The notes under the pieces are model-generated. The model searched no databases. It saw nothing but the letters and a program-made list of their open reading frames with translations, and was not told the origin of the DNA. 64,000 nt of DNA from Mycoplasma sp. CAG:956 (GTDB lineage: Bacteria; Bacillota_I; Bacilli_A; RF39; UBA660). The stretch is from NCBI GenBank assembly GCA_000433475.1, contig HF993109.1:133712-197711 (forward strand). Direction: 5' to 3'. This document shows, in pieces, positions 6,668 through 35,440 of this stretch (position 1 is the first letter of the stretch; each line of letters starts with the position of its first letter). A program made the translations under genes and the position numbers.

Positions 6668-6734
6668 TATAAGAAAATATTATCTATAATGGCATTAATA
6701 TATAATTTATAAATTAAATAGGAAGTGACAAAAC

Positions 6735-9359: not shown

Positions 9360-9459
9360 AATAAAATACTATTAAGAAAAAACACTTAATAGTATTTTTA
9401 ATATTGCTAAATTTAAAAAAAGTAGTATAGTATAGAAAATTAATTAAAAAGGGGATTTT

Positions 9460-10857: not shown

Positions 10858-10948
10858 GAAGAAAGAGAAAATTTACTAATTTCCCTTGCTTTTTTTTTCT
10901 ATTTATAAGATAATTAAGAAGTATAGATAGTAAGGAGTCGTAAAAAAT

Positions 10949-13561
10949 ATGGAATATGGTATCGATTATATATTAAAATTACCAACTGAAGATATAAAAA
11001 CTTATTTAGAAAGTGCTAGTATAATAGATATCCTAGCCATCTTAGAAAATATCAAAAAACGTAAGGAAATGGATTATGCTTCTTTAAACAAATTAGAAAA
11101 ATTAGAAGAGCAAATTAAAATAAATAAAAATTACCTTACTGATATCGATAAACGTATAAATTTTGCTACTAAAACTAATGCTCCTAAAGTAGAAGTTGAT
11201 TTATTATGGGAAGAATATAGTCGTTATGATGCCATTATCGATGATTTAACTAGTAAAAAAGAACAATTAATTCAAGGATTTAATGATAAAAAACAAGCCA
11301 TTTTTACTTTAGCATGGAATATGATCTTAGAAGCTCCTGTATCTAAATTAGAAGATTACCGAAACAGCCTTATCACATGGCTAAAAAATAGAATAGAAGC
11401 TATTGAAACTAATAAGAGCAACAGGGAAATAACTACCAATACACTTTTAGAAGATAGAAACTTTACTAAAGAAGATCTAACTGTTAAATCAATTGATGCC
11501 GAGATTAAAGAAATGGAATCTCAAGTTCTAAATCATGAACTTATTTTAAATGAAGAAACTATTGGGAAGATTAAATCATTAAGAGCTAAAAAAGAATCAT
11601 TAGAACATGAAACTTTTACTTTTGTTTGCACAGAAAAGATAAAAACGTCTCTAAAAACTATTAGTAATGATATAACTAAATTACAGATGGAATTATCTAA
11701 CATTATTCAAATGGACATTGAATCTTTAAAAGAAATGATTTTAAGTGATTATGCTCAAGGCAAAGAAGAAATAAAATTAGCCAACTACGTTCGTATTTAT
11801 CGCTCTTATTTAGAAAATATTAGTAAAGTACCTCTTACTTTAAAAGCAGCATATCGTAATATTTGCCTAAACTATGCTAATCTTTTAAATTCCATAGAAA
11901 ATCCTAGCTTTGAAGGGGAAACTCTTAATGATTTAGATATTAAATTAAAAGAATTACATAATTATATAAAAACTTTAGAACAATATAAAACTAAAAAAAA
12001 TGATAAAACTACCGAAACTAAGTTCTTATATACTACTGTAAGACAACAAGGCTTATTTGAACTTCCTTTCTCTAAAGATAAATGGTTATCTTATTTTGGT
12101 AAATATTTTGAATCCTTACTTAACGAAATTAAACCATTAGAAGAAAAGAATAAAGAATATATCTCTTTAACAACAGTTAGTCTAAAGAGTAAAAAGATAG
12201 AAGAAGAATTAGACTTATATCGTAAAGACTTAAGAAGTATGTTAGATGAACTATATAACAAAGTTTTATCCATATATTTAAAGAATAATTTATATATTAA
12301 TGTTAATGTTTATGATTATCGTGATACCGAAACATTTACTAAGTACTTAGAATATCAAACTATTAGTATCGATAAAGAAATAGCAAGTGTTAAAACTACT
12401 ATTGAAGGATTAAATAGTAAGAAGAGTAATATCTTAGAATTAATTAATGATACTTATAGTAAGATTGATACTGATATTAAAGCTAAATTAAATAGTATTT
12501 TTAATGGAACTTATGTAAAAGAAGAAGAACAAGAAGAAAAACCTCATCATTTCTTTGCAAGTCCTACTACATTAGAACCTAGTTATAATGATACTTTTGA
12601 TGATACAACTAGTAATTTAGAACCTATAAGTAAGGTAGAAGAAGAACCAGAAGTATCTGAATTTGATTCTTTCTTTGCTACTGATATTCCTTTTAAAGAT
12701 GATGATACAGAAGAAAATAATGAACTACCAGAAGAAGCTCCTACAAGACCTAAACATGAATTAGAACCAGATGAAGTTCCTTTGAAAGAAAAAGAAATCA
12801 AAGATGAACAAAGTAACAATTCTAGCATAACCACCTTTAATCCCGATGATATCTTTGGTAGTACATCAAATACTTTAGATAATGCTTTAGAAGAAGAGCA
12901 AAAACAAGAACCAGTAGTTTCAAAAGAAGAAGATGATACGGTAATTTCTTTTGATAGTGAAGATATAGCATCAACAAAGGCCTCAGAAAAAAAAGAAGAG
13001 GCTAGTGAAGCTAGTGCAGTATCTGATGATATAAACTTTGATGATGCTATATCATCATCTGATAGAGAAGCTTTTAAAGAACTACTTGAACCTCAAAAAG
13101 TGCCAGATTTTAATACCATAATTAATACTCCTGAACCAAGTACTAAAGAAGAAAAAAACAAAATCAAAAAAAGAGGACTTAAAGTAATTAAACAAGAACC
13201 AGTAGTTTCTAAAAAAATGTCAAAGAAAACACCAGAGGTAGTTTCAAAAACAACTGTTAAAACGGATGCTACTGAGATTAAAGAACGAATCGAAAACAGC
13301 CAAAATGATAGACAAAGTAAAAATGTACCACCACTATTTAATCCGGCTAGTGCTAGTGATGTAAAAAGTGAATACAATGATACTAATGCTCCAATTGATT
13401 TAAATGCTTTTCTAAATGGCAACCTTTCAAATCCAACAGAAAAACAAGAAACTAAAGAAGTTGATGATAAAACTAAAAAATTAACTTTAAGTCAAGATGA
13501 TAATATAAATTTGATGGACTTTTTAAACCAAATTGAAAATAACGATGCTAAAGTAGCTTAA
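10949..13561 (+). CDS. Hypothetical 870-aa coiled-coil protein with long acidic Ser/Glu/Pro-rich disordered C-terminal half
   Basis: RBS AAGGAG; heptad-like K/E/L-rich N-terminal 520 aa; C-terminal ~350 aa dominated by E, D, S, P, T. Confidence 0.7.
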   Translation: MEYGIDYILKLPTEDIKTYLESASIIDILAILENIKKRKEMDYASLNKLEKLEEQIKINKNYLTDIDKRINFATKTNAPKVEVDLLWEEYSRYDAIIDDLTSKKEQLIQGFNDKKQAIFTLAWNMILEAPVSKLEDYRNSLITWLKNRIEAIETNKSNREITTNTLLEDRNFTKEDLTVKSIDAEIKEMESQVLNHELILNEETIGKIKSLRAKKESLEHETFTFVCTEKIKTSLKTISNDITKLQMELSNIIQMDIESLKEMILSDYAQGKEEIKLANYVRIYRSYLENISKVPLTLKAAYRNICLNYANLLNSIENPSFEGETLNDLDIKLKELHNYIKTLEQYKTKKNDKTTETKFLYTTVRQQGLFELPFSKDKWLSYFGKYFESLLNEIKPLEEKNKEYISLTTVSLKSKKIEEELDLYRKDLRSMLDELYNKVLSIYLKNNLYINVNVYDYRDTETFTKYLEYQTISIDKEIASVKTTIEGLNSKKSNILELINDTYSKIDTDIKAKLNSIFNGTYVKEEEQEEKPHHFFASPTTLEPSYNDTFDDTTSNLEPISKVEEEPEVSEFDSFFATDIPFKDDDTEENNELPEEAPTRPKHELEPDEVPLKEKEIKDEQSNNSSITTFNPDDIFGSTSNTLDNALEEEQKQEPVVSKEEDDTVISFDSEDIASTKASEKKEEASEASAVSDDINFDDAISSSDREAFKELLEPQKVPDFNTIINTPEPSTKEEKNKIKKRGLKVIKQEPVVSKKMSKKTPEVVSKTTVKTDATEIKERIENSQNDRQSKNVPPLFNPASASDVKSEYNDTNAPIDLNAFLNGNLSNPTEKQETKEVDDKTKKLTLSQDDNINLMDFLNQIENNDAKVA

Positions 13562-13595
13562 GTTTAATAGATAATAGTAAATACATAAAAAAATT

Positions 13596-14069
13596 GGTTC
13601 AATAAAATCTAGTGTGAAGAGAGATGATAAAATTTCATCTCTTTTTATGTGGTAATATGTAGTAAATAATAATAGGAAGGCGAGTATAGATGAAAGATTA
13701 TTATTTGCTAATAGGATTAAATAGTAAGGAGGTTAAAATAATAATGGATTAATAGAAATTACTATTGAGAATAGGAAAAAGAAAGTAAGGTGTCCTGTCT
13801 GTAATAAATTTACAAGTTCAGTACATGATAAATTAAAGCCTATAAGAAGTGTTTATTTAGATAGTTGTGGTTCAACAAGAAACAAAAATATCTCCAACAT
13901 TAAAAATAAGAAATAAATTTTTTACTCGATTATCAAAATTTTAATAATATTAAAAACGTTCAAAAAATAACTAAAAAAATCATATCAAAAAAAATGTAAA
14001 AAAATCCGTAAATTCCTTATGTTATAAGGCATCATGCAGATTTTTACTTCACACTAGATTTTATTGAAC
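13596..14069. mobile_element. MITE-like internally deleted ISL3-family remnant bounded by perfect 24-bp inverted repeats
   Basis: GGTTCAATAAAATCTAGTGTGAAG at 13596-13619 is the exact reverse complement of 14046-14069; interior encodes fragmented ISL3-like transposase N-terminus (MKDYYLLIGLNSKEVKII.. then ..RCPVCNKFTSSVHDKLKPIRSVYL zinc-finger-like) broken by stops. Confidence 0.55.
13617..13648 (+). terminator. Rho-independent terminator hairpin (agagatga-loop-tcatctct + T-run) after 10949..13561
   Basis: 8-bp perfect stem 13620-13627/13635-13642 followed by TTTTT. Confidence 0.5.
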
Positions 14070-14121
14070 CATAATTCTTGCTTATCCTTTATCTTTGTGT
14101 TACCTTAAATTTGGTGATAAT

Positions 14122-14895
14122 ATGCAAATAATTAAATATACTAAAAAAGGTTCTAATAAATATGAATTGACTTTAAAAGATAATACTAAATTACTAGTAT
14201 ATACTGACCTTATTTTAGAATATAACTTATTAATAAGAAAAAATCTTGATCCTAATACTTTAAAGAAAATAAAAAGTGCTAATCTAAAACTAGAATGTTA
14301 TTATAAAACCTTAAAGTATTTAAAAAATACTAAATGTACTAGTGATATAAAAAACTATTTAAAAGATTATCCTTCTAATATAGTTGATTATACTATTAAA
14401 AGATTAACTAAAGAAGGTTATTTAAATGATAATAATTACATTAAATCTTATATAAATACTAAAATAAATTTAAGTAATGATGGTTATTATAAAATATATT
14501 ATTATTTAAAAAATAAAGATTTAGATGAAACTATTATAAAAAATTATCTAAATGATATTGAAGATAATATCTGGTTAGATAAAATAAATAAGATAGTAAA
14601 TACTAAATTAAAAAGTAATACTAAGTATAGTAATAACTTATTAATAAGTAAAATAAAAACTTATCTTAAAACACTTGGATATCAAGATTATCTAATTAAT
14701 ATAGCCTTAGATAATATTAATTTAGATACCTCTAAAGAAGATGAAAAATTAGAAAAAGACTATCTAAAATTATTTAATAAATATAAAAATAAATATGAAA
14801 AAAATAAGTTAAATTATATTTTAATAGGTAAACTATATCAAAAAGGTTATGATTTAGATAAAGCCAAAAGAGTAGTAGAAACTTCCAATTTGTGA
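14122..14895 (+). CDS. recX: Recombination regulator RecX
   Basis: GGTGA RBS then ATG; three-repeat helical pattern with ..YELTLKDNTKL.V..D.I..Y.L.....L........K.A.......YYKTLKYL..T..S..E...YL......I...I.RL...GYLNDN.Y..SYI.......GY.KI...L..K.. typical of RecX family; tool start 14095 is TTG. Confidence 0.6.
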   Translation: MQIIKYTKKGSNKYELTLKDNTKLLVYTDLILEYNLLIRKNLDPNTLKKIKSANLKLECYYKTLKYLKNTKCTSDIKNYLKDYPSNIVDYTIKRLTKEGYLNDNNYIKSYINTKINLSNDGYYKIYYYLKNKDLDETIIKNYLNDIEDNIWLDKINKIVNTKLKSNTKYSNNLLISKIKTYLKTLGYQDYLINIALDNINLDTSKEDEKLEKDYLKLFNKYKNKYEKNKLNYILIGKLYQKGYDLDKAKRVVETSNL

Positions 14896-14920
14896 TAAAA
14901 TTAGCATAATAGGAGTAAGT

Positions 14921-17900
14921 ATGAATAATAAATTAAGTATTGAAGAATTTAGAAAATATAAAGAACAATTACAAAAAATAATTGATGACTTTAAAAATAA
15001 TTATGAAGTAATGAAAAATAATCCTTCTTATAATGAAGCCCAAGAAGAAGAAAAAAGCATTGCTGCCTATTTTAAAATTGAACAAGATCTTTTTAGTCAT
15101 GATTTAAGTGCTATCCCATACGAAGAGTATCAAAACCTATCAATTATGGCAACAGACCAAGAAGAATTAGATCTGTCAAATAGCCATGCTAATATTGATT
15201 TTTCACTCATCGAGGTATTTGGACACTGCAATTTTAAGGGGTGTAACTTAAAAAATATTGAAAAAGTAAATGATAGAATAAGTCCTAAGTATTTAGATAC
15301 TGATATCTTTTTAAAAAATAAAGATTTATTTTTATCTAGTAGTTTTCCCGAATGGTTCCAAGAAAAATGGTACTATGGTGATTTATCAATCGAAGATGTA
15401 ACTAAATTAGATAAGACTTTAATAGAAGAACTTATCAGTAATCCGCAAATTTTATATCATCTTAGTAATAGTCATGATGTTTATATAATTAGAAATTTAG
15501 GCTTAAAAAAGGCTCTTTCTATCTATAATTATTCTAAAGAAGAATATCAAGTCTTAAATAACCTTATATTTAATCTATCAAGTGCTAATTTTAATAAGAT
15601 AGACCAATCATTAACTGATCCCGAAGCAATTATTAAAAATATTTATCAAATCTCTGTTGATGATATATTAGCGGTAGATAATGAGTATTTTAAAAGAAGA
15701 TTAAAGCCAGAAAGTTATCATCAAAAATTTGTTGAGGCTAATGAAAATATTTTTAAAACTAAGAGTAACTTACCAGAAGATGTTAAAAATAGATATTATG
15801 AACACAATCTTAGTGTAAATGATGTTTTAAATAACTATGAGGAATTCAAAAATATTCCCTTATTAGGATTTATGAAATCAATAACAAGTAGTTCTAAAGA
15901 TATAATTTGTAATATTAATTTAGCTTATGGTAGTATGGCTTTTCAACAAGTTTATCCATTATATCCCAAATTAATTAAACATTTAAATGATGCTGATATT
16001 TTTTTAAGTTTTAATAAAAATTATGATGTAAAAACTGGTTTAAGAGATGCCGTTACTAATTGCTTAGAATGCTTTAAAGAAAAAAAAGTACCCGATTGGG
16101 CAAATGAAATGTTTACAAGTATTGTTCCTAAATATTACGATATAAGCAATTTGAAAAAATATAATCCCCAAATTTGCTTATATGATCCCTTGCAACGCAA
16201 AATAGTAGAAACTAACAACGTTGATAATGCAATCAAATTTAATGACGAAACACATTTTTTTGATTATGTGGACGATAGAAGTCCCGTAAATGCCTTTATC
16301 TTATATTTAAAAAGAAGTAATATTGACTTTAAAGAATTTGCTACTTATCAAGAATTTCGTGCCTTTATGGCAGAGCATTTAGGAAAAATGCGAGAAAAAA
16401 ATTACTTTAAAGATTATGATTCCTACGCCTTTATTCCGACCTATTCCAAAGCTTTTTACCAAGATTTTCGTCATATCTTTATTGATTTAAATAGCAATGG
16501 AACCTTACAAAAAGCCTTCTATGATAATAGATTAACACCTGATTATATAAGGCTTTATCCTAAGTGTTTTAAAGATTTAGAACACGAAGATTTAAGATAT
16601 GTTATAAGTAGCGATAATAAAAAATTTAAAGAAGTATTTATTCCTTTTTATACCAGTCATTTTGGTAATTTAGCATTATTAGATATTTTTAAAAAATATG
16701 CTTATAACAATTATCTAGTTGATTCCCTTGACCAAATAAAGTTAGATGAGGGTATGACTAAGGAACAAATTGATAAAAAAATAAGAAGCATTACTTATAG
16801 TAATATTTTAAAATACAGCCAGTTTTATTGGAAAAATTTAAAAAGTGATCCTTTATTTGCTAAAGAATATCCAGAACTTATTCTATCCGAAGATGAAATA
16901 ATGACACCAAGTGGCATAGTCCAAAATGACATTATCGATAAATTTTACAGAGGTAAATTAACTTTTGATGATATATTTACTTGTAAACCGCTAGCTTTAG
17001 CCTTACAACATAAAAATATCAATGTTGCCATTAGAAACAATAGTACTTATTATTTTGGCAATGGTATGAACGAAGCTCAAATTTATCTAAAACAGTTAGG
17101 CCAAGAAGACTTTCTAAAATTATGTAGTACTTTTGGTAAATTCTTAGATAATTCCATTAACAGAATTAAATTTTCTAATGATATTTCTTATTCCGAATTA
17201 TGTAAACAATTAGAAGAACTAACTGTTAAAAAAGCAACTTATGAAGGTATTCCTTTTAATGAAAGCAATGCCCCTTCCTTCTTAGTACAACAGCATCCTG
17301 AACTTTTCTTGGATGAATCTGCTCCTTGGGGGTTAAAAATGGCTTTTGAGGATGGTATTGATTTTTACTCTTTAGCAGCTAACTATAATGAGACTTTCCC
17401 TTTCTTAAAAGATAAAGCGGCTGTAAGTTTCTTTATCAGAAAAGATAAAGGACATAAAGGTGCCATTGCTAATTATTTTAATCTTTTTGGTAATATAGAT
17501 GCCTTAAAACTTGCTGGTAAAAAGCCCGATATTGTAACTAAAATGATTCATCATGATAAGGTTTACAATTTAAGAACCTGGTATTTAAAAACAGGTGGTA
17601 AATTTATTCCTGATCCAGTTGTTATGGAAAATTTTCCCCTAGATGATGTTGATAAATTCTTAACAGCAGGATTTAAATGGAGCAATTTAATGCGTTTATC
17701 AGAATTTACTAAAAATGATGAAACCAAAGAAGCCTTGCTAAAAATTGCTTATGTTTTTGGTACTTTTGATAATGATGATAGGGGCTATAAAAAAGTATAT
17801 GACTTATTAACTGAATTGCCGACTAAGTTTAAAGAAGATATTGGTTATATCTTTGATAACTTAGATAATGCTCTAGATAGTAATGCTAATTTTAATGTTT

Positions 17901-19513
17901 ATTTTCCTAATAATGATTTGGCAACAAATTTAATATTAACTGCTAATTCTGAAAAATTTCCGATTACTAGACCTAACTTTTTTAAACAGTTATATCGCCA
18001 TAATGCTGATAATACTTATACTTTAACAATTAATCAGCAAAAATATCCTAAAACAAGCCTAGTTATTCATGAAATTCTAAGTAGTTTTAAAGAATTTCAT
18101 TTAATAAATGCTACCAATGCTCATCAATTATTTGGTAACTTTGATTTTCAATATAATCCTGACTTTTATAATTTTTTCATAACTAATTTAGATACAATAT
18201 TAAATGATACTGAAAATTCTAGGTATTTGGGTTCTATTCAAAAACAATTTAAAGATATTAAAACAATAAATTCTAATCGTCACCTAACTTGGCAGATGGC
18301 AGTTAACTATGTTTTAGAAAATAAGTTTACCAATGTTAATCTTGGTAACGAACAAATGGCTGCTGTTTCATCTATTGCAGGCTATACCCAAGAACAATTT
18401 GAAAAACTACAAGAAATTTATGAATATAGTAAAAGAAGAGTAAAAAGTAGTATTCCTCATATCGAAGAAAGAACTGATGATTACACTTATGAGACCTTAA
18501 GATTAGATGATCCATTAGGTCTTGCTATTGGTACCCTTACTGATTGCTGTCAGGAAATAGATGATGCTGCCGAAGTTTGTATGGAACACTCAATGACAAG
18601 TTCCGATGGTCGTATTTTTGTCATAAAAGATAAAGAAAATAATATTGTAGCTCAAAGTTGGGTATGGCGAAATCAAAATGTTTTATGTTTTGATAATATA
18701 GAAATTCCTCACAAAGCCTTTGAACGAGCTATCCAAAAAAAGATAAATTTAACCCAAGTAGTTTATGATATATATAAACAAGCTGCTAATATTTTATTAG
18801 AAAAAGATAAAGAAATGTATAAGTCTTTATTGGAAAAAGGAAAGATAACAAAAGAAGAATATGATGCCCTATGTTTATCAAAAGTAACTGTTGGATTAGG
18901 TTATAATGATATTGCCGAAGAATTAGAAAAACAAGCAACACTTGATAATGGTATTCTTACTCATCCTCTTGATTATGATGCTCCAGTAAAGTTAAATCGT
19001 AGTCTTTATACCAATGACTCTAAAACCCAATATATTATTGCTGGCAACCAAGATCGTCTAAATAGAAGCCCAATGGAAACTAAAGCTTTATATACCGATG
19101 ACTTTAAAATTTATGATGATACTAACTTCCAAGAAAAAGATTATTTACATTTAATGAAATTAGAACTATTAACTGAAAATGGTAGCGATGATTTGAACTA
19201 TGCATTAACTAAATCAAGAAAAGATGAAAGCTTCCTAACTATTTTAGCTCGTTGTTATAATTTAGATCCTAAAACAACCCAAGTAATTTATAATAGTAAT
19301 ATGTCTATAATCTATGATATAAAAGATGATACCTTAAGAATAGGTAAAATTCTTTATAATTCAAATAACTATGATGTAGCTTATTACCAAATAAAAATAG
19401 CTATAGAAAAAATAGCCCAAGATAAAAATATAGATTTATCATTATCAGATAAAAATACCCAAGATTTATATAACAAAATAAATCTTAATAATGATATAAA
19501 GAGTAGGAGTTAA
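14921..19513 (+). CDS. Giant (1530 aa) cytoplasmic hypothetical protein
   Basis: RBS TAGGAG; no signal peptide or TM; Cys cluster GTLTDCCQEIDDAAEVCMEHSMTS near aa 1190; no family recognised. Confidence 0.75.
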   Translation: MNNKLSIEEFRKYKEQLQKIIDDFKNNYEVMKNNPSYNEAQEEEKSIAAYFKIEQDLFSHDLSAIPYEEYQNLSIMATDQEELDLSNSHANIDFSLIEVFGHCNFKGCNLKNIEKVNDRISPKYLDTDIFLKNKDLFLSSSFPEWFQEKWYYGDLSIEDVTKLDKTLIEELISNPQILYHLSNSHDVYIIRNLGLKKALSIYNYSKEEYQVLNNLIFNLSSANFNKIDQSLTDPEAIIKNIYQISVDDILAVDNEYFKRRLKPESYHQKFVEANENIFKTKSNLPEDVKNRYYEHNLSVNDVLNNYEEFKNIPLLGFMKSITSSSKDIICNINLAYGSMAFQQVYPLYPKLIKHLNDADIFLSFNKNYDVKTGLRDAVTNCLECFKEKKVPDWANEMFTSIVPKYYDISNLKKYNPQICLYDPLQRKIVETNNVDNAIKFNDETHFFDYVDDRSPVNAFILYLKRSNIDFKEFATYQEFRAFMAEHLGKMREKNYFKDYDSYAFIPTYSKAFYQDFRHIFIDLNSNGTLQKAFYDNRLTPDYIRLYPKCFKDLEHEDLRYVISSDNKKFKEVFIPFYTSHFGNLALLDIFKKYAYNNYLVDSLDQIKLDEGMTKEQIDKKIRSITYSNILKYSQFYWKNLKSDPLFAKEYPELILSEDEIMTPSGIVQNDIIDKFYRGKLTFDDIFTCKPLALALQHKNINVAIRNNSTYYFGNGMNEAQIYLKQLGQEDFLKLCSTFGKFLDNSINRIKFSNDISYSELCKQLEELTVKKATYEGIPFNESNAPSFLVQQHPELFLDESAPWGLKMAFEDGIDFYSLAANYNETFPFLKDKAAVSFFIRKDKGHKGAIANYFNLFGNIDALKLAGKKPDIVTKMIHHDKVYNLRTWYLKTGGKFIPDPVVMENFPLDDVDKFLTAGFKWSNLMRLSEFTKNDETKEALLKIAYVFGTFDNDDRGYKKVYDLLTELPTKFKEDIGYIFDNLDNALDSNANFNVYFPNNDLATNLILTANSEKFPITRPNFFKQLYRHNADNTYTLTINQQKYPKTSLVIHEILSSFKEFHLINATNAHQLFGNFDFQYNPDFYNFFITNLDTILNDTENSRYLGSIQKQFKDIKTINSNRHLTWQMAVNYVLENKFTNVNLGNEQMAAVSSIAGYTQEQFEKLQEIYEYSKRRVKSSIPHIEERTDDYTYETLRLDDPLGLAIGTLTDCCQEIDDAAEVCMEHSMTSSDGRIFVIKDKENNIVAQSWVWRNQNVLCFDNIEIPHKAFERAIQKKINLTQVVYDIYKQAANILLEKDKEMYKSLLEKGKITKEEYDALCLSKVTVGLGYNDIAEELEKQATLDNGILTHPLDYDAPVKLNRSLYTNDSKTQYIIAGNQDRLNRSPMETKALYTDDFKIYDDTNFQEKDYLHLMKLELLTENGSDDLNYALTKSRKDESFLTILARCYNLDPKTTQVIYNSNMSIIYDIKDDTLRIGKILYNSNNYDVAYYQIKIAIEKIAQDKNIDLSLSDKNTQDLYNKINLNNDIKSRS

Positions 19514-19515
19514 CT

Positions 19516-20496
19516 ATGTTAGATAATAATTTAGATACTATAATTAATAAAACTTATATTATCGATAAAACCCCTTTAAATGAAGAAAAAATAAAAAAAG
19601 TAATAATAAGTCTAAAAGACAGTATTATTTCTAGTAAAGAAGAAATTACAGCGGCAAATGCTATAGATATAAAAAATCATAATGGCAATATAATTGACTT
19701 TTCTATTATTGAAAGAATATTTAAAAATATTAATAATGAAAAAATTTATTATGGTAATGTAACAACCCTAAAAAAAGATAATAATAAGTATTATGGCAAA
19801 CAATACTTTGATAAAGGCAATGTCTTAATTTTTAATACAGGCAATCCTTATATTATCTTAGAAATATTTTTAAAAAACTTTTTAGCAGGTAATACTTCTA
19901 TTATTGTTACTACTAATTATGCATATGGCTTAAATAAATTATTAGAAACCATTATTAAAACTGTGTTAGAAACAAATAATCTATCACCAGACTTTATTAA
20001 CTTACTTACAACTGATGCCCCCGAAGAATTATTAAAAAATAATTATGCCAATATTGATTTAGTAATAGCACTTGGTAATAAATCTTTCCAAAATAAGATT
20101 ACTAACTATTCTAAAGTACCTGTTTTACTTAGTGGCTATGAAACATTTGATTTATATATTGATGAAATGTTAGATAAAACTTTTCTAACAAAGATAATTA
20201 ATCTTCATTTACCAATGCACGTTTATATTAATAAAAATTTAAAAATTGATTTACGAGGTAGTATGTTAGTAGATGGAGTAGAGGAAGCTATTATGCAAAT
20301 TAATTATAATGGTAATGGTTATAGTAGTGCTATATTTACTAGTAATGATGATAATGCCGCTAATTTTATTAGTAAAGTTAAGTCCAAGATAGTTACGGTT
20401 AATACTAGTCCTACTATTGAAAGACTAATGGATATACAAGTTAAGGATTTAGTCTTAGAAAAGACCGTTATTTATCCTAATAAAAAGAAAAACTAG
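19516..20496 (+). CDS. Shortened gamma-glutamyl-phosphate reductase (ProA)-like protein lacking the ALDH catalytic Cys (probable pseudoenzyme)
   Basis: 326 aa vs ~415 for ProA; by-eye alignment, recalling the E. coli ProA sequence from memory: LDDAI.HIN.HG..HSDAILT.D...A.RFV..VDS.AVYVNASTRF vs ours VEEAIMQINYNGNGYSSAIFTSNDDNAANFISKVKSKIVTVNTSPTIE; position of the ProA ..STCNTVE.. catalytic Cys reads HLPMHVYINKN; start 3 nt after upstream stop. Confidence 0.5.
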   Translation: MLDNNLDTIINKTYIIDKTPLNEEKIKKVIISLKDSIISSKEEITAANAIDIKNHNGNIIDFSIIERIFKNINNEKIYYGNVTTLKKDNNKYYGKQYFDKGNVLIFNTGNPYIILEIFLKNFLAGNTSIIVTTNYAYGLNKLLETIIKTVLETNNLSPDFINLLTTDAPEELLKNNYANIDLVIALGNKSFQNKITNYSKVPVLLSGYETFDLYIDEMLDKTFLTKIINLHLPMHVYINKNLKIDLRGSMLVDGVEEAIMQINYNGNGYSSAIFTSNDDNAANFISKVKSKIVTVNTSPTIERLMDIQVKDLVLEKTVIYPNKKKN

Positions 20497-20555: not shown

Positions 20556-21605
20556 TTAGTTACTAGATGAACTATTTTTTTTGTTTTCTTGAATTTTTAA
20601 TAATGAATTTTGAATATAATTTGTATAATTAGTATTTAAATCATCATCAATAATATTCATACCATATTCTTTACGAACAGCTTGCATTGATTTAATATAA
20701 GCTTCTTGGTTTTTACTTAAATAATCACTTACTAAAGCATCAATAATTTTATCTCTAACATCTTCTAATTTGGCTTTTTCTTTAGTTTCTGTACGATATA
20801 CTAAGTGATATCCTAATTCAGTCTCAACAATGTTAGATGAATATTCACCATCTTTTAATTTGTAAGCTTCAGTAACAAGATTATTATAGTTAGAACCTAA
20901 AGTATCAGTATTAATAAATCCTAAACTACCACCATCGTTTTTAGAAGAATCATCATTAGAATATTCTTTAGCAAGTTCACTAAAAGTATCTGCAATCTTA
21001 CTCTTATCAGCAGCTTTTAATTTATCAAGTGCTTCTTGAGCTTTTGCTTTAGCTTCATTTTTAGCCTTAGTTTTATCATCATCAGAAGCATCAGATGCAT
21101 AATTAACACTAATTAGAATATGAGAAACTTTAATATCAGGTTTAATTTCATCATTATAATATTTTTTGATATCTTTTTCACCAATATTATCTTTAGCATA
21201 ATCTTCAGCTGCTTTATTTTGTAAGTAGCTTAAATATACATAATCTTTATATTCATCAAGTGTTTGATATCCAGTATAAGTTTGGATAGCGCTAAGTAAT
21301 TTATCACCATAACTAGTTTCTAATTGACTCATAACTGAATCAGCATTCTTATGAGCTTCTTCAGTAGAATCAGCATATTTCTTTTCTAATATCATTTTAT
21401 CAATCATATTTAAGATGACTTCAGTTCCATATTTATCCTTCATTTGATTATAGAAATCGGTAACACTGATTTTAGCATCCTCATTAAATGTTACAACAGC
21501 TTGATCTCCGTTTTCTAAAGTTGGTATCGTCTTTGCACCACAACCACTAAGCAATGTCATACTGGCAAGACTAAGTGCTACTACTTTTTGTATTTTCTTA
21601 TTCAT
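20556..21605 (-). CDS. prsA: PrsA-like lipoprotein foldase (PpiC-type peptidyl-prolyl isomerase)
   Basis: Signal peptide with lipobox LLSG-C; parvulin motifs SHILI...GGSLGF...GYHLVY; RBS AGGAGAG. Confidence 0.75.
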   Translation of the reverse strand: MNKKIQKVVALSLASMTLLSGCGAKTIPTLENGDQAVVTFNEDAKISVTDFYNQMKDKYGTEVILNMIDKMILEKKYADSTEEAHKNADSVMSQLETSYGDKLLSAIQTYTGYQTLDEYKDYVYLSYLQNKAAEDYAKDNIGEKDIKKYYNDEIKPDIKVSHILISVNYASDASDDDKTKAKNEAKAKAQEALDKLKAADKSKIADTFSELAKEYSNDDSSKNDGGSLGFINTDTLGSNYNNLVTEAYKLKDGEYSSNIVETELGYHLVYRTETKEKAKLEDVRDKIIDALVSDYLSKNQEAYIKSMQAVRKEYGMNIIDDDLNTNYTNYIQNSLLKIQENKKNSSSSN

Positions 21606-22138
21606 TTTAATCTCTCCTCTAATGCATTATAGCATATTTGCAAGGAGTGTTACTATAAATTTTGATGATTTTGCTTAATTTTTTGGCATACTTCTGGGCT
21701 TTTTATGATATCTTTACAAATTGAAAACAAGTACTAACTAATTTTTGCTTTATTAGTTTGTTCTTTTTGAATCTTAATTACCTCATCAACAGACTATTAA
21801 CAAACTTAGAAATTTGTTCTGGCATTAATCCTAAACCAATAGAATTTTTAATAGTTTCATTTTTTAGAAGTAAGTAACATTAAGGCTCTTTTTTGTCAAT
21901 CATCATAATTTCGTTATGAAAATTATCTTCTAATTTATCAAGGGCAATTAAAATAGTTGTCACTGCAAATGGGTATTTAACTTACAAATCTTCTTCTTTT
22001 ATAACAAAACGATTAACTATCTTACGATTAAATGGCAGACTGGAACATAATCGATATCAATTACTTAATTAAAATATCATACACAAAAAAATTTCCTTAC
22101 CATAATATATAATGAGACTTATAAAAGGAGGGAAATTT

Positions 22139-22231
22139 ATGAATAACGGATGCGGATGCAACGGCATGGGTCCTGCTATTATCTTAGTTTTATTTATATT
22201 ATTAATTATCATAGTTGGAGCTTTTATTTAA
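22139..22231 (+). CDS. Tiny membrane peptide (30 aa) resembling the YjcZ / tiny-TM family of Bacillus-like Firmicutes
   Basis: AAAGGAGGG RBS 7 nt before ATG; MNNGCGCNGMGPAIILVLFILLIIIVGAFI (Gly/Cys head + ..LVLFILLIIVGA.. core); below 60-aa cutoff so absent from ORF track. Confidence 0.55.
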   Translation: MNNGCGCNGMGPAIILVLFILLIIIVGAFI

Positions 22232-22240
22232 GGTGATATT

Positions 22241-22357
22241 ATGGAAAAGTGTGTAAAAAAGGATACTTGTCCTAATAAAACCAATCAAAACTACTTATTT
22301 ATAATAGTTCTTTATATTTTACTTGCTATTATATTATCTAGTTTCATCTTTTATTAA
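22241..22357 (+). CDS. Second tiny membrane peptide (38 aa), tandem to the first
   Basis: ATG 9 nt after previous stop; MEKCVKKDTCPNKTNQNYLFIIVLYILLAIILSSFIFY; Cys-containing head + single TM. Confidence 0.4.
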   Translation: MEKCVKKDTCPNKTNQNYLFIIVLYILLAIILSSFIFY

Positions 22358-22436
22358 AAGGGGAAAACCCTTTTTTTCTAATGCTTTTTTTTAATATTTA
22401 TATTATAATGGAATTGTTAGGAAAGTAGGATGTATT

Positions 22437-24725
22437 ATGGCAAAAAAGAAAAAACGTAAAAATAGTGATGATAAGGCTAAAGGCTATAGTGTTGAGTTAA
22501 CTGGTCTTATTATTGTTTTAATAGGTATTATTGGTTTTGGCTTCGGCATCGTTGGTGCTATGATAAAAAAATTTGCTATCTTTTTAGTTGGTGAATTTTG
22601 GTTTGCCTTACTTATTCTTTTAGTGATTATTGGTATTATGATGTTATTTAGACGTAATTTACCTAACTTTAAATCAGCTAAATGGACCGGTATATTTATA
22701 TTACTAGCAGTTATTTTAATTTTAGCTCATGCTACCTTCATAAAAAATAATTATACATTTACCAGTGTACTTAATGCGACAAAAGATAACTATATGGAAC
22801 GCATTGCAACAATTAATGGTACGGGTCCTATTTTATCAAGTGGTCAAAGTTCTATTAGTGTTGGTGGTGGCATAATTGGGGCTTTACTTGCTGGTGGTTT
22901 AGTCCAATTATTTGGCTACATTGGTACTATGATAACTATTTCTATTTGTGCTATTTTTGGTATTGTCTTATTCTTTGATATTAATTTAGCTGAAGTATTC
23001 ACAAATATTAAAGACTATATTGTTAATACTTTCTTTGAAAGCGATGACGATGAAGAAGATGATGATGAGGAAGAATCAGATAAACACGTCGAAGAAATAC
23101 CTATTACTAAAGCTACTCCGCAAGTGCCAGATGCAGATAACAAAGTAATTATTACTAGTGTTGATGAATTAAAACAACGTACAGGATTTGAACAACCAAG
23201 AGAAATTCCAGTTACAACAGGTGAGACTATAAGCAGCAGTGAACAACAAGAAGACAAATTAGTATTTGTTAATGACAATTATCGTTTGCCTGATATTAAT
23301 AAGATTTTAGATCCTATTAAGAAAGACAATAAAACTAATTCCACAGAATTTATTCGCAGTAATAAAAATATCTTAGAAAGAGTCCTAAAAGAATTTGGCA
23401 TTGAAGGTAAAGTAGTAGAGATTCATATGGGACCAGCTGTTACGCAGTATGAAGTCCATATTCCTGCTGGTACTAAACTAAGTCGTATTGTTTCTTTAGA
23501 TAAAGAAATTGCCCTCGGTATGGCGGCTAAATCAGTTAAAATAGAAGCCCCAATCCCAGGTAAAAATACAGTTGGTATTGAAATCCCTAACCCAGTTATT
23601 TCTTCTGTTCAAATTAAAGAAGTTATGGCAAACATTCCTCCTAATCAGTTAAAAGCTAAGATTTTAGTATCTTTAGGTAAAGATATCATGGGTCGTGTCC
23701 AAACTGCTGATATTTCAAAAATGCCTCACCTTTTAGTAGCGGGTTCTACTGGTTCTGGTAAATCTGTTTGTATTAACTCATTCATCGCTAGTATTTTAAT
23801 GCGTTATCGTCCTGATGAAGTAAAATTAATGATGGTTGATCCTAAGAAAGTTGAACTTTCTAATTACAATGGGGTTCCTCATCTATTATGTCCAGTTGTA
23901 ACTGATCCTAAGAAAGCCTCTCTTGCTCTACAAAGAATAGTAGAAGAGATGGAACATCGCTATGACTTATTTGAAGAAAATGGTGTTAAAAATATTTCTG
24001 GTTATAATGAAATGATAGATAAATATAATGAAGATAATCCTGATGATAAAAAGAAACACATGACTTATATCGTTGTTATAATAGATGAGTTAGCCGACCT
24101 TATGATGGTTGCCTCTAAAGAAGTAGAAGACTCCATTATGCGTATTACCCAGATGGCTCGTGCTGCTGGCATCCATTTAATTGTTGCTACTCAAAGACCA
24201 TCAACTGACGTTATTACTGGTGTTGTTAAAGCTAATATTCCATCTCGTATTTCTTTTGCCGTATCAAGTCAAATCGATTCTCGTACTATCTTAGATTGCT
24301 CAGGAGCTGAAAAACTATTAGGAAAAGGTGATATGTTATATTTACCAATGGGCGAAAATGCCCCAATCCGTATTCAAGGGTGTTTCATTTCTGATGATGA
24401 GATAAGACGTTTAATTGAATATGTTTGTTCACAACAACAAGCAAACTACGATACAAGAATAACCGCTCCTAAAGAAGAAGACCATAATCCGGTATCTGGA
24501 GAAAAAGAAGACTATGAAGATCCTTTATACAATGAAATAGTAGAATTTGCTATAAATACTGGTAAGATTTCTGCATCATTACTTCAAAGAAGATTTAGAC
24601 TAGGTTATAACCGTGCCGCAAGATGTATTGATTTACTTGAAGAACGTGGTATTATTGGACCTGCTAATGGTTCTAAACCAAGAGAGGTTTTAGTTAAATT
24701 AGAATCAAAAACACCAGAAGATTAG
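22437..24725 (+). CDS. ftsK: DNA translocase FtsK/SpoIIIE
   Basis: 4 N-terminal TM helices, acidic linker, Walker A VAGSTGSGKS, Walker B IVVIIDELAD, C-terminal gamma winged-helix LLQRRFRLGYNRAARCIDLLEERGIIGP. Confidence 0.95.
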   Translation: MAKKKKRKNSDDKAKGYSVELTGLIIVLIGIIGFGFGIVGAMIKKFAIFLVGEFWFALLILLVIIGIMMLFRRNLPNFKSAKWTGIFILLAVILILAHATFIKNNYTFTSVLNATKDNYMERIATINGTGPILSSGQSSISVGGGIIGALLAGGLVQLFGYIGTMITISICAIFGIVLFFDINLAEVFTNIKDYIVNTFFESDDDEEDDDEEESDKHVEEIPITKATPQVPDADNKVIITSVDELKQRTGFEQPREIPVTTGETISSSEQQEDKLVFVNDNYRLPDINKILDPIKKDNKTNSTEFIRSNKNILERVLKEFGIEGKVVEIHMGPAVTQYEVHIPAGTKLSRIVSLDKEIALGMAAKSVKIEAPIPGKNTVGIEIPNPVISSVQIKEVMANIPPNQLKAKILVSLGKDIMGRVQTADISKMPHLLVAGSTGSGKSVCINSFIASILMRYRPDEVKLMMVDPKKVELSNYNGVPHLLCPVVTDPKKASLALQRIVEEMEHRYDLFEENGVKNISGYNEMIDKYNEDNPDDKKKHMTYIVVIIDELADLMMVASKEVEDSIMRITQMARAAGIHLIVATQRPSTDVITGVVKANIPSRISFAVSSQIDSRTILDCSGAEKLLGKGDMLYLPMGENAPIRIQGCFISDDEIRRLIEYVCSQQQANYDTRITAPKEEDHNPVSGEKEDYEDPLYNEIVEFAINTGKISASLLQRRFRLGYNRAARCIDLLEERGIIGPANGSKPREVLVKLESKTPED

Positions 24726-24744: not shown

Positions 24745-25152
24745 ATGCAACAACATGAAGTCATAACTAAATTTAAATTTACTTTTCTTAAATATTATGT
24801 TATTATCGTAGCGAAAAAATGGGAAAAATATGATATATCTAAAAACTTAATAAATACTATTCTTACTGAAAATTATGAAGAAGTATTAAAATATTATAGT
24901 TCAATTAACTTAGTTTTGGCTATTTCGGTTTTAGATGTTTATGAGGCTATAACCTTAATTAATGCTAGTAGTAATCTTTATAGTGCATCTATATTTACAA
25001 GTGATGATACTATCGCTAGAACTTTTATAAAAGATATTCATACTAAAAAAGTAATGGTAAATGCCAGTCCTTTATTAGAAAGTTTTCTTGATATAAAAGA
25101 AGAAGATTTAGTTGATATAAAAGAAATATATAGTGCTTATTCTAATAATTAA
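24745..25152 (+). pseudogene. C-terminal ProA-like fragment, paralogous to the C-terminus of 19516..20496
   Basis: ...ISVLDVYEAITLINASSNLYSASIFTSDDTIARTFIKDIHTKKVMVNASPLLE.. aligns with ..VEEAIMQINYNGNGYSSAIFTSNDDNAANFISKVKSKIVTVNTSPTIE..; only 135 aa, no RBS. Confidence 0.4.
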
Positions 25153-26828: not shown

Positions 26829-29381
26829 ATGGAAAAAAAGAATAAAGGCTTTACAATCCCTGAACTTTTGGCTGTTATTGTTATAATTGGCATCTTAGTA
26901 ACCATAGCATCCGCAAGTTATAATGGAATTAGTAAAACCTTAAAAGAAAAAACATATCAAAATAAAATAAACTTGATAAAAACTAAAGCCGTTGAATATG
27001 CAACCGATAATAATGTTGATGCTGAAACTATAAGTGTTGCAAAATTATTAAATGAAGGCTATCTAGAATTGGAAAATGATACGGAAGCCAATGAAAAACT
27101 AAATAATCCTAACGGTGGTTACTTAGATTGCTACCAAGTAAGCATTAATAAAAATATCGATGATTATGATATCAATGTTACTAGTGATGATACTTGTAAT
27201 ATGGCAAATCTTGATAATGCTTCTAGTAAAATTACTATTTATGCTTATGAGACAGAAAAGGTAAATAATAATGTTCAGATTAATTATGAAGCCTTAGGTA
27301 GTAATAACAATACTAAATGGACAAATAAAGACGTTTACTTATTTATTGATCCTAAAACTTTACCAGTTGAAGAACTAAGTAATGTTAAAATAACTTGGAC
27401 TCTTAATAATGAAATAATTACTAAAAATGGTAATTTAACTGATAGTGTTTCTAGTAATTTAGATTATGCCAATATCTATCAGGTAGAAACTAATTACTTA
27501 TATAATGCTATGGTAACTGCTCAGATTGAAATCGATGGTAAAAGATATAGTCAAAAAGCCAGTGTTAAGATTGATAAAGAAAAACCTAGTGTAGCTCTTG
27601 ATTTTAATGCTAGTTATGAAAAAATGGATGAACAAACGAGAAGAGCTACTAAAATTATTAATTTTAATGGTTCTGATGGTAGTGGTTCTGGTATTGGTCT
27701 TACTAAAGAAAATAATACTGTAGTTGGTTATTTCCTTACTGATGATGCCACTTACGTACCAAGTGCTAGTGACTTTAATATAACAACTGAGGCTCATCAA
27801 ACTAATGCTTATGAAAATGGTACTTATTATGGTTATACCATCGATGCTGTAGGTAATATTTCTAATCCTACTAGTATCAATATTGACAATGTTACTTACG
27901 ACTTACCAGTTTGTTTATTACCAAATGCTAATAAAACTTGGACTAACAAAGATTATACTTATACCTATGGCTGTAAAAATGATAAAGGAACTGGTTGTTC
28001 TTATGAATTAATAAGTAAAACTGTAACTACTGATACCGATACTTTACCAGATTTTGAATGGAAAGCAACTGATAATACTGGTAACTCTGTTAATTGTGAA
28101 TCTAAAGGCTTATCTGTTAAAGTTGATAAAACCGCACCAACTTGTAATATTACTGTTATAAGTGGTACCTTAGGACGTAATAATTGGTATACTACTGATG
28201 TTAAGTTAGCCCTAAATTACTCTGATAATTTAAGTGGCATAGCAGCATATGGCATTACAACCAGTACTAATGCCGACTTTAATTCAGAAAAAGAAACAAC
28301 CCTAAATTTTGATACTCCAGGTATAACTTACTATGGTTATGTTAAGGATAATGCTGGTAATGTAGGTACTTGTAATATTACTGTTAAAAGATTAACAACA
28401 CCACCAACTTGTAATCTTTCTCTAAGTGGTACTAAAGGAAATAACAATTGGTATCGTTCTAATGTTGCTGTTACTATGCAAACAAATGGTTATGGTATAA
28501 GTGAAAAGAAAATATACTCACCAAACGGTGCAGTAAATAATGATTATTATACGTTAACTTATGATACTAATAATGCTACTATTACTGGTAATGTGACTAA
28601 TGAAGCTGGTTTAACTGGTACTTGCTCTACAATTATAAAAAGAGATGTTACCCCGCCAGTTGCAACCTTAAGAATGAAAACTACTCATTATTGTTACCAT
28701 ACTATAAATGTAACTACATCTGGTGGTTGTGGTGATAGTAGTAGTTCTAGAGATATTGATTGTACAACTTGGGATAATAAAGGCTTTAATAACAGTTCAA
28801 CTTTAAATAGTTATTTAAGTAGTAATGTTGGCAGTTATAAATCTTATTCTTATAAAGGTAAAACTGAGGGAGATAATGTATCTTATAACCAAGCCGAATT
28901 AGTTTGCTCTGATAATATGACTACTAATGTAAGTTATAAAATAGGTAATAAATCGGGAGCTATTTATGATTTAGATAGCGATTCTAATGCCAGAAGTAAA
29001 ACTAACTATACTATGACCGGTACTTGTACCGATGAAGCTGGTAACCAAGCAAGCTCATCTAAAAACTTTTATCGTTATGAAGATGAACAATACTGTGAAA
29101 AAACCCATACAGAATATACTTGCGATAGTACTCATATCGAAGTTACTAACTGTGATGATGGTAAAAACTATACAACATCTAGTGGTAATAACTGTGGTGG
29201 TGCCGATTCTAACGGTGAATACGGTTCCAACGGTGATGGCTCATATTATGATTGCGGTTGGGGTAGCGGTGGCTCCGGTAGTACCAGTGATTGTGGACAC
29301 GTTAATGAAGTTTGTGACCACGAAACTAGTTACGAAGTATCCGATGGCTTTTATAAATGTGCCGATAATAAATGGAGATAA
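26829..29381 (+). CDS. Large (850 aa) type IV pilin-like / pseudopilin-like protein with class III signal peptide and repeated Ig-like modules
   Basis: RBS AAAGAAAGGA; N-terminus KG/FTIPELLAVIVIIGILVTIASASY (prepilin cleavage G, Glu+5, hydrophobic helix); three ~100-aa modules T.PTCN.(T/S)...G..G.NNWY...V.......D..SG......T......G.TGTC..I.KR; Gly/Ser/Cys-rich C-tail. Confidence 0.65.
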   Translation: MEKKNKGFTIPELLAVIVIIGILVTIASASYNGISKTLKEKTYQNKINLIKTKAVEYATDNNVDAETISVAKLLNEGYLELENDTEANEKLNNPNGGYLDCYQVSINKNIDDYDINVTSDDTCNMANLDNASSKITIYAYETEKVNNNVQINYEALGSNNNTKWTNKDVYLFIDPKTLPVEELSNVKITWTLNNEIITKNGNLTDSVSSNLDYANIYQVETNYLYNAMVTAQIEIDGKRYSQKASVKIDKEKPSVALDFNASYEKMDEQTRRATKIINFNGSDGSGSGIGLTKENNTVVGYFLTDDATYVPSASDFNITTEAHQTNAYENGTYYGYTIDAVGNISNPTSINIDNVTYDLPVCLLPNANKTWTNKDYTYTYGCKNDKGTGCSYELISKTVTTDTDTLPDFEWKATDNTGNSVNCESKGLSVKVDKTAPTCNITVISGTLGRNNWYTTDVKLALNYSDNLSGIAAYGITTSTNADFNSEKETTLNFDTPGITYYGYVKDNAGNVGTCNITVKRLTTPPTCNLSLSGTKGNNNWYRSNVAVTMQTNGYGISEKKIYSPNGAVNNDYYTLTYDTNNATITGNVTNEAGLTGTCSTIIKRDVTPPVATLRMKTTHYCYHTINVTTSGGCGDSSSSRDIDCTTWDNKGFNNSSTLNSYLSSNVGSYKSYSYKGKTEGDNVSYNQAELVCSDNMTTNVSYKIGNKSGAIYDLDSDSNARSKTNYTMTGTCTDEAGNQASSSKNFYRYEDEQYCEKTHTEYTCDSTHIEVTNCDDGKNYTTSSGNNCGGADSNGEYGSNGDGSYYDCGWGSGGSGSTSDCGHVNEVCDHETSYEVSDGFYKCADNKWR

Positions 29382-34145: not shown

Positions 34146-34940
34146 TTATTTATCATTTTTCTTATAGCCTTTCTTTTTGTTAATTTTCTTTCCTTTAATT
34201 CTAGTTGTATTATAAAATTCTATCCATTCTTCAACTAATTGTATGTATTCTTCTAAAGATGTGATATCATTGTTATACAAAGTTTCCTTTTTTAGGAGAG
34301 AGTGCCAACTCTCAATTGGTGAGTCATCTATTGGAGTACCTTTTCTAGACATAGAAATAGTAATTCCATTAGATTCACAAATAGCTTTGTATTCATAAGA
34401 TGTATACTGGAATCCTTGGTCGGAATGTATTATTAATTCAGATACATCTTTTCTTTTTGCTATCGCTTTATTTAAAGTATCCATAACTAATTTATTATCA
34501 TTATGTTTTGATATTTTATATGCAACTACTTTTCTATCATACAAATCAATTATTGTTGATAAATATGCTCTAGAACCCTTAAATATAAGATATGTTACAT
34601 CTGTATCCCAAACTTTATTAGGTGCATCAGTGTTAAAATTACGATTTAATAAATTAGGTTTAACATTATCTTCAATTCTTTCATTTTTATTTTTCTTTTT
34701 TGATTCCCTTACATATTTAGGAATCAAATTATATTTTTTCATTATTCTTAAAACCTTCTTTCCATTCATTACAACTCCTTCATATTTGACTTTAATGCCT
34801 TCCGCAACGCGACGATATCCATATGTGCCCTTAGATTCATCAAATACTTCTTTAATTATCAAATAATCATAATAATCAGGATCTTCCTTATTTCGATATT
34901 TATAGTAAGTTTTAGAACTTATCTCTAATACGACACACAT
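34146..34940 (-). CDS. IS3-family transposase OrfB (DDE/rve integrase core)
   Basis: D..WDTDVTY, HSDQGFQYTS, ..E.. ..YNTTRIK motifs; frame -1 relative to orfA ((35278-34940) mod 3 = 2); orfB reading frame extends upstream of its first ATG. Confidence 0.85.
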   Translation of the reverse strand: MCVVLEISSKTYYKYRNKEDPDYYDYLIIKEVFDESKGTYGYRRVAEGIKVKYEGVVMNGKKVLRIMKKYNLIPKYVRESKKKNKNERIEDNVKPNLLNRNFNTDAPNKVWDTDVTYLIFKGSRAYLSTIIDLYDRKVVAYKISKHNDNKLVMDTLNKAIAKRKDVSELIIHSDQGFQYTSYEYKAICESNGITISMSRKGTPIDDSPIESWHSLLKKETLYNNDITSLEEYIQLVEEWIEFYNTTRIKGKKINKKKGYKKNDK

Positions 34941-35278: not shown

Positions 35279-35440
35279 TAGAAAAACACCTCCTTTCGGA
35301 GATGTATTCTATCATAAATTAGTCCTTTTTTAATGTCTACCCTAAAGGGTGCATTTCATACCATAGTCTATTTTTCGTTGTCAAAATAAATTATTTAGTT
35401 TATAATTATATTAAGATATAATAAAAAGAGGTTAATTGTT

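Follow-up and report, generated by a model that had tools for sequence, protein, structure and literature searches.

SpoVM and CmpA of Bacillus subtilis are very small mother-cell peptides, active at the surface or membrane of the forespore while the coat is assembled; class IIb two-peptide bacteriocins such as lactococcin G are encoded by two adjacent small genes, and their helices are thought to pack via GxxxG-like motifs. The YjcZ proteins are a further group of tiny membrane proteins. A search of the literature for their family names (TIGR01732, PF09680 and tiny_TM_bacill) returned nothing, and the papers that mention YjcZ report regulon membership or sporulation-linked expression only, B. 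subtilis yjcZ having been placed in the σK regulon (Eichenberger et al. 2004, PMC517825). Here we analyse a 64,000-nucleotide (nt) stretch of DNA from Mycoplasma sp. CAG:956 (contig HF993109.1 of assembly GCA_000433475.1, positions 133,712 to 197,711 of the forward strand), referred to below as the window. Between positions 22139 and 22357 it carries two short open reading frames (ORFs), ORF1 and ORF2, which an original prediction made from the sequence alone had interpreted as tandem tiny membrane peptides of YjcZ type located upstream of ftsK. Our results confirm that observation and support its interpretation. The two ORFs are co-oriented, separately initiated genes under selection, encode tiny single-helix peptides within one transcription unit and are, with high confidence, real members of the YjcZ family. 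That they are also expressed in connection with sporulation is the overall reading that we favour, with a good deal more reserve. ORF1 and its relatives are called A-type below, ORF2 and its relatives B-type.

ORF1 (22139-22231, + strand) encodes a peptide of 30 amino acids (aa), MNNGCGCNGMGPAIILVLFILLIIIVGAFI, and ends with a TAA stop at 22229-22231. Its polar Cys/Gly/Asn head is followed by one transmembrane helix that runs to the C-terminus. From a reading of the sequence, the Shine-Dalgarno element is AAAGGAGGG (22124-22132, +), with the GGAGG ending 7 nt 5' of the ATG at 22139; the predicted ribosome site and 30-aa frame were thus exact to the base, and AAGGAGG is kept upstream of the A-type gene in all related loci. 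The G+C (GC) content of the window is 23-31% (27% overall), which makes chance ORFs of hydrophobic character the null hypothesis. Scored against TIGR01732 (tiny_TM_bacill, YjcZ family sporulation protein), ORF1 reached 23.0 bits (E 4.7e-5, profile positions 1-25 of 26), a small margin above the curated cutoff of 21.35 bits. As a control, spurious ORFs of 22-70 aa were collected from all six frames of the window and the 148 most hydrophobic were scanned with the same library; none of them matched TIGR01732 at E<=1. We also built a hidden Markov model (HMM) of the ORF1 family from 26 ORF1 relatives, leaving the window copy out, and scored it on 1378 six-frame window ORFs: ORF1 obtained 64.7 bits, ORF2 came second with 10.1 bits and the best of the other 1376 reached 6.9 bits.

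The exact ORF1 product has been called as a gene in 72 blocks of public assemblies, mostly human gut metagenomes and including Hadza samples, and it directly precedes ftsK at every public site displayed. A wider search yielded 72 tiny proteins of 28-59 aa that share the near-invariant helix AIILVLFILLIIIVGA(F/Y)I; these relatives have an invariant head Cys (C5) and a LVLFILL..I.GA core, and several of them carry the NCBI name 'YjcZ family sporulation protein [Candidatus Coprovivens]'. Longer gene calls such as MKRQIKGGSIMNN... correspond to the ribosome site translated along with the A-type peptide. Among close strains, the ORF1 gene shows three differences, all synonymous. ORF1 is a canonical A-type YjcZ member with the C-terminus ...LVLFILLIIIVGAFI, and the family is already annotated as such in relatives; its score above the cutoff and the NCBI names of its relatives bear out the placement in the tiny-TM family that had been proposed for it.

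ORF2 (22241-22357, +) begins at the ATG at 22241, after a 9-nt gap, and encodes the 38-aa peptide MEKCVKKDTCPNKTNQNYLFIIVLYILLAIILSSFIFY, which comprises a Lys/Cys-containing polar head, a transmembrane helix and an aromatic tail. Its own Shine-Dalgarno element, again from a reading of the sequence, is AAGGTGAT (22230-22237, +) and overlaps the ORF1 stop codon (TAA), its counterpart in related loci being AAGGAGGT. Each translation stays below about 50 aa and has a polar N-terminal part rich in Gly and Cys and one hydrophobic C-terminal helix. Head and helix conservation was read from alignments of 27 A-type and 14 to 43 B-type sequences, and both alignments display one invariant head Cys and a near-invariant helix. 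The B-type core is VLYILLAIIL-S/G followed by an aromatic tail, and the helix of ORF2 contains an invariant Ala with a small residue four positions on, making AxxxS here and AxxxG in most relatives.

No family model was matched by ORF2 itself in the NCBIfam and Pfam scans. The TIGR01732 search that had been put forward as a check was positive for ORF1 and negative for ORF2, about half of the relatives of the latter being detected: 22 of 43 sampled B-type sequences matched this model at E<=0.01 (best 4.5e-6), with no competing family, and the B-types of the related loci L027 and L030 scored 19.2-19.3 bits. Two B-type relatives are named YjcZ by NCBI (MBP3766088.1 and MDD6879260.1), and comparison of the A-type and B-type profiles with hhalign gave a probability of 94.8% over the helix, although both HMM and hhalign scores are inflated between very hydrophobic low-complexity helices. 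On the strength of this profile-profile match, of the 22 matching relatives and of the two NCBI names, ORF2 is a divergent YjcZ paralogue that is reached via intermediates only, hence more than the peptide of similar architecture that had been predicted 9 nt downstream of the first. The probable reason why it misses TIGR01732 is a head rich in Lys instead of Gly, together with Ser-Ser in place of the usual Gly.

Regarding the breadth of the B-type branch, a 14-sequence profile retrieved 226 clusters (50% identity) at E<=0.001 among 1.84 billion protein representatives, nearly all of 30-48 aa and with VLYILLAIILG. Distant homologues, P0002 and P0003 among them, have the core LFIIVLYILLAIILS in common and differ in their polar heads, one example being MNEKCNNSGQ..GFLFIIVLYILLAIILSGSFYY. 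Compared with the nearest genome match (L001), ORF2 differs at five sites, four of them synonymous third-position changes and one non-synonymous (Thr to Ala), and strain L024 carries an in-frame 3-nt deletion in this ORF. The exact ORF2 product is not on record among publicly called genes. As to the remark that the pair had been missed by the ORF track, public gene calls thus include ORF1, in the 72 assembly blocks mentioned above, and not ORF2.

To describe the arrangement of the two genes, loci were pooled from a genome search, from exact-product look-ups, from a metagenome scan seeded with the A-type alignment and from three look-ups seeded with B-type proteins. They amount to 23 distinct A-B pairs, and the A-type gene comes first in all 23. 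The gap between the two genes is about 9-37 nt, B has its own AAGGAGGT-like ribosome site, and in most related loci a hairpin with a T-run lies 3' of B, the stem sequence varying by lineage. A short A gene was present upstream at each of the three B-seeded loci, uncalled in two of them and called at just 28 aa in the third. Across the 23 pairs, the A core (13 codons) accumulated 1507 synonymous versus 298 non-synonymous differences, with 7, 0 and 13 variable positions at first, second and third codon positions, respectively; the corresponding values for the B core (12 codons) are 1305 versus 719 differences and 8, 2 and 12 variable positions. As third positions are saturated while the peptides are conserved, both genes must be translated and under selection. 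These results show that ORF1 and ORF2 are under purifying selection at the protein level, and that the tandem is a fixed A-then-B pair whose order is constant across many lineages: the two genes are paralogues, as the proposal of a tandem duplication implied, and they do not form a loose duplication.

Two unusual B-type sequences should be mentioned. At L029 (77-208), only the C-terminal half of B and the terminator are left, joined to an N-terminus of unrelated sequence, with an HTH_38 (IS30-like) gene alongside; B has decayed or been rearranged here, as it has in L031-L033. The 70-aa public protein P0098 is a single-chain A-B fusion, ...ILGAYI-SGGVK-MACQ...VVLYILLAIILGAWIW, in which Ser stands in place of the A stop codon and the translated ribosome site serves as linker. 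This protein may be a rare read-through variant; otherwise it reflects an error in sequencing.

A self-contained operon of two genes occupies 22078-22381: the two tiny ORFs, each with a ribosome site, are flanked by a promoter and a terminator. The putative promoter, recognised by its position and conservation, consists of a -35 region, CATACACAA (22078-22086, +), with a conserved AC at 22083-22084, 16 nt 5' of a -10 element of σK/σE type (CATAnnnTA), CATAATATA (22101-22109, +). For the alignment of this region, 15 lineages were anchored on the CATA...TA closest upstream of the ribosome site and three more were read, giving 18. CATAnnATA is present 16-20 nt 5' of GGAGG in 17 of these lineages, the remaining one having CTTATAATA with a single -10 mismatch, and AC is found 16-17 nt upstream of the -10 element in all 18, whereas the spacer sequence varies freely. 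In most lineages the -10 element lacks the final T of a σA -10 element (CATAAA or CATAGA, for example). σE and σK promoters share the same -10 element and differ in the -35 region by a C (σK) versus a T (Eichenberger et al. 2004, PMC517825). The conserved AC-16/17-CATAnnATA, together with the membership of B. subtilis yjcZ in the σK regulon, leads us to predict from sequence that the operon is probably transcribed by σK, late in the mother cell, during sporulation. A σ70 promoter was rejected as a candidate: the lone upstream match on the plus strand (22051-22080, 9 of 12) has a spacing that is unconserved between strains and is absent in distant loci.

The predicted transcript start near 22116 also excludes a 39-aa reading from the ATG at 22112, which would start at or before it and whose extra residues are the translated ribosome site. 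At the other end of the operon, an intrinsic terminator, AAAAGGG-GAAAA-CCCTTTT plus a T-run (22356-22381, +), begins on the last bases of ORF2, and its hairpin at 22356-22374 is the only terminator-like site in 21500-22600. A second strict AC-N16/17-CATAnnATA match lies elsewhere in the window, at 35339-35365 (+), about 75 nt 5' of a 424-aa ORF (35441-36715) that has no Pfam or NCBIfam match. With the motif at chance frequency, this ORF is a possible further late-sporulation gene.

The nearest genome match is an uncultured Bacilli metagenome-assembled genome (MAG) from the Hadza gut (L001), with 95% FtsK identity, followed by MAGs labelled Erysipelotrichaceae (65%) and 'Clostridium sp. CAG:710' (53%), which do not have the pair upstream of ftsK. 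Candidatus Coprovivens, the name borne by several ORF1 relatives, belongs to GTDB order RF39, family CAG-1000 (PMC8035907). For members of RF39 a capacity to sporulate is predicted, with an unusual, reduced gene set, and multiple sporulation losses are ongoing in these orders (Field et al. 2024, PMC10868615). In the related locus L057, a gene for the small acid-soluble spore protein SspI (PF14098) is located at 9807-10013 (-) on the same contig as the A-B pair, which indicates that this relative is a spore former.

Several observations weigh against the reading of the pair as YjcZ-family genes with sporulation-linked expression. ORF2 matches neither TIGR01732 nor PF09680, and ORF1 obtained only 14.7 bits with PF09680 (YjcZ_2; E 0.024, helix only), below the gathering threshold of 21. 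Several A-type relatives lie under the TIGR01732 cutoff, at 14.8-17.2 bits, and profile scores between such helices are inflated. In L031-L033, the B frame (6103-6215) is open without an ATG, GTG or TTG start or a ribosome site, and B is therefore not indispensable everywhere. The terminator is weak (-8.2 kcal/mol, z = -1.8), making read-through into ftsK possible. The full promoter motif occurs three times in the window (both strands) versus 2.5 expected, no more rarely than by chance, so that the evidence for it is its fixed position and conservation and not its mere presence. The function of YjcZ, including that of B. subtilis, is not described in searchable papers, and the sporulation capacity of the host and its possession of sigK are inferred from the literature on order RF39. 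Finally, the scan of the 40 larger window proteins turned up no recognisable sporulation gene, and many large ORFs are without family match. This last point also counts for the main live rival explanation, according to which the family is kept for a role outside sporulation, as small membrane proteins of growing cells, and the motif is read by another sigma factor. Many small membrane proteins are accessory subunits, and the pair could be accessory subunits or regulators of this kind; its constant neighbour prsA encodes a secretion foldase without a necessary link to spores, and the ongoing losses of sporulation in these orders and the reduced gene set of RF39 (Field et al., PMC10868615) point the same way. 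Yet such a role does not sit well with the conserved C-A-T-A...T-A -10 element and AC -35 region, from which the final σA T is missing in most lineages, nor with the σK dependence of B. subtilis yjcZ, the sole family member with experimental data. As RF39 is moreover predicted to sporulate and sspI lies on a related contig, we regard a non-sporulation role as unlikely, while giving it more weight than any of the other alternatives.

Type I toxins and small holins are similar in size and consist of a single hydrophobic helix with no other domain, and the two peptides might damage membranes as these do, possibly aiding mother-cell lysis at the end of sporulation, a timing that a late mother-cell promoter would fit. 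This explanation is improbable: neither a conserved antisense promoter nor an antisense RNA was observed (6 minus-strand promoter-like matches versus 6.7 expected), the conserved element of the flanks being the sense promoter, an Rfam scan of the peptide-pair region gave no match, no lysin or endolysin genes are adjacent, the helices are without the charged or polar residues that toxins and holins usually have, and their near-invariance across lineages suggests specific packing over generic disruption. The two adjacent small genes, the small-xxx-small motif of B and the Cys and Gly residues of the heads would also suit a two-peptide, class IIb-like bacteriocin or another ribosomally synthesised and post-translationally modified peptide (RiPP), and the artificial 39-aa reading weakly matches a model of RiPPs modified by radical S-adenosylmethionine enzymes (E 0.018, 15 bits versus a cutoff of 25). 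That match, however, falls in the untranslated ribosome-site region. Neither the A nor the B alignment shows a double-glycine leader, and no immunity, modification or peptidase-containing ATP-binding cassette (ABC) exporter gene adjoins the pair in any locus, the neighbours being prsA, recX, ftsK and other housekeeping genes in every one; the ABC transporters of the window are 20 kb off and have ABC_membrane and ABC_tran domains only. Furthermore, a conserved helix with a variable head is the reverse of the leader/core pattern, and we consider a bacteriocin or RiPP very improbable. Equally small is the probability that the ORFs are leader peptides controlling ftsK via the terminator that follows them. 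Their position directly upstream on the same strand, with a weak terminator between them and ftsK, had made this conceivable, but comparison between lineages largely refutes it. Elsewhere the pair is followed by unrelated or convergent genes while keeping a promoter and a terminator of its own, and this variation of the downstream gene removes the leader idea; the strong conservation of the peptides is not expected of attenuator leaders, and ftsK has its own AT-rich promoter-like region and ribosome site. As for chance open frames in AT-rich intergenic DNA, the window does contain more than 1000 short ones, many very hydrophobic, and AT-rich codons spell Ile/Leu/Phe-rich helices at its GC content. 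The null hypothesis is nevertheless refuted by the absence of TIGR01732 matches among the 148 most hydrophobic frames, by the preservation of both frames in 23 distinct loci, where third positions are saturated and the peptides are nonetheless conserved, by the strong ribosome sites on both genes and by the hundreds of homologous tiny proteins.

If the pair indeed consists of YjcZ-family genes expressed in connection with sporulation, its working can be pictured as follows. Late in the mother cell, σK would drive a transcript that starts near 22116, and translation of B would be coupled to that of A because the ribosome site of ORF2 overlaps the stop of ORF1. Membrane insertion of both peptides would be post-translational, as chains of 30-38 aa are finished before they emerge from the ribosome. 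The polar heads may face the mother-cell cytoplasm, an orientation favoured by the Lys-rich head of B and only weakly indicated for A. A and B could then associate via their near-invariant helices, with B offering a small-xxx-small packing face, and the resulting hetero-oligomer would sit in the mother-cell or the outer-forespore membrane, where the conserved N-terminal Cys would be available for cross-linking, for instance to Cys-rich coat material, or for metal binding. That A and B form such a hetero-oligomer in the membrane is a tentative proposal, which we hold to be rather less probable than its opposite. More doubtful still is its strongest form, in which A and B would not be redundant duplicates but an obligate two-subunit heteromer, the AxxxG/S face of B lying against A, made only late in the mother cell and serving as a minimal spore-membrane or coat-anchoring device, or as a lysis device, in reduced-genome gut Bacilli.

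The pair is followed by a gene of the ftsK/spoIIIE family (22437-24725, +; 762 aa), for which the Pfam domains FtsK_alpha, FtsK_SpoIIIE and FtsK_gamma were found on the equal-length product in L019. The prediction was correct in placing the tandem upstream of ftsK, but the link is incidental, since the gene downstream of the pair varies across lineages (ftsK, a DUF87 ATPase gene, ftsY, or genes for a HIT protein, CmpB or a serS-like product) and no such pair precedes ftsK in the L003 (65% identity) and L011 (53%) relatives. On these grounds ftsK linkage was rejected as a defining feature. The conserved neighbour is instead the divergent recX-prsA(-): in the window, a prsA-like gene for a peptidyl-prolyl isomerase lipoprotein (20556-21605, -; NCBIfam PrsA models, E 2e-27) is transcribed away from the pair, and the rotamase gene has the same position and orientation in L031, L034, L059 and L061. 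Between prsA and the pair, the DNA has been replaced at least twice among near-identical strains, homology resuming just 5' of the -35 region. By comparison with L017-L026 and L037, the strain-variable interval between prsA and the operon spans about 21606-22075; the window has no genes there, whereas some strains carry two genes of about 659 aa and a PDDEXK-like gene, and another carries five small genes.

Further features of the window were noted in passing. Two ORFs, at 19516-20496 (+) and 24745-25152 (+), bracket the block formed by prsA, the peptide pair and ftsK and show weak matches to different parts of ProA (glutamate-5-semialdehyde dehydrogenase), the first to positions 24-247 of 418 (78 bits) and the second to positions 308-371 (27 bits). 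A gene disrupted into two halves would explain them, as would remote aldehyde-dehydrogenase-like domains. A run of very large ORFs of 870-1530 aa, without NCBIfam match at E<=1e-5, occupies 840-19513 (+), near the counterpart of which related strains encode Peptidase_M23 and DUF5411 proteins. At 26829-29381 (+), an 850-aa ORF opens with a prepilin-type cleavage/methylation motif (TIGR02532, 28 bits) and is followed by several ORFs without family; judging from this motif, the region may be an unusual giant pseudopilin locus. Finally, an IS3-family transposase fragment whose N-terminal part is missing lies at 34146-34940 (-) and covers profile positions 107-359 of 369 (E 5.9e-76).

With this analysis, the annotation of an uncultured gut lineage gains two real genes, one of which, ORF2, does not appear in the public gene calls searched for this organism. 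Many 'hypothetical' proteins of 30-47 aa with a VLYILLAIILG core can be understood as a second YjcZ branch, the fixed partner of the canonical one. The conserved σK-type promoter would provide independent, sequence-level support for a late mother-cell programme in RF39-like Bacilli, a matter that bears on host-to-host transmission. Were the two-subunit module true, TIGR01732 would hide two functionally distinct subfamilies and the pair would offer a handle on YjcZ function. The new points, namely the fixed A-B pairing and the conserved σK-type promoter in RF39-like gut Bacilli, are modest, and the gain is incremental.

The comparison with described systems can now be drawn. Like type I toxins (Fst, BsrG, TisB), the peptides are single hydrophobic helices of 30-40 aa of a kind often missed by annotation; unlike them, the pair is a two-gene sense operon without an antisense RNA signal, and its helix is uncharged and highly conserved. 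The AxxxG/S of the B-type peptides recalls class IIb bacteriocins, from which the pair differs by the lack of a double-glycine leader, of immunity or export genes and of cationic character, and by a predicted promoter of sporulation type. SpoVM and CmpA provide a functional analogy only, for a tiny membrane peptide driven by σK, since SpoVM is an unpaired amphipathic surface helix under σE and not a transmembrane one under σK. The closest likeness is to B. subtilis YjcZ and the TIGR01732 and PF09680 families, with which the pair shares its tiny size, the polar Gly/Cys-rich head, the one hydrophobic helix and the ..VLFILLII.G.. core, its conserved putative promoter being moreover of the σK type that B. 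subtilis yjcZ, as a member of that regulon, would lead one to expect. The pair departs from the canonical family in that the window copy of B falls under the threshold and A does not reach the Pfam model. In contrast to B. subtilis YjcZ, it is found in an uncultured, very AT-rich, probably RF39-like gut Bacillus and not in a Bacillus species, its heads are shorter and Asn-rich, and it is always arranged A-then-B, the second member bearing a VLYILLAIILG/S signature of its own.

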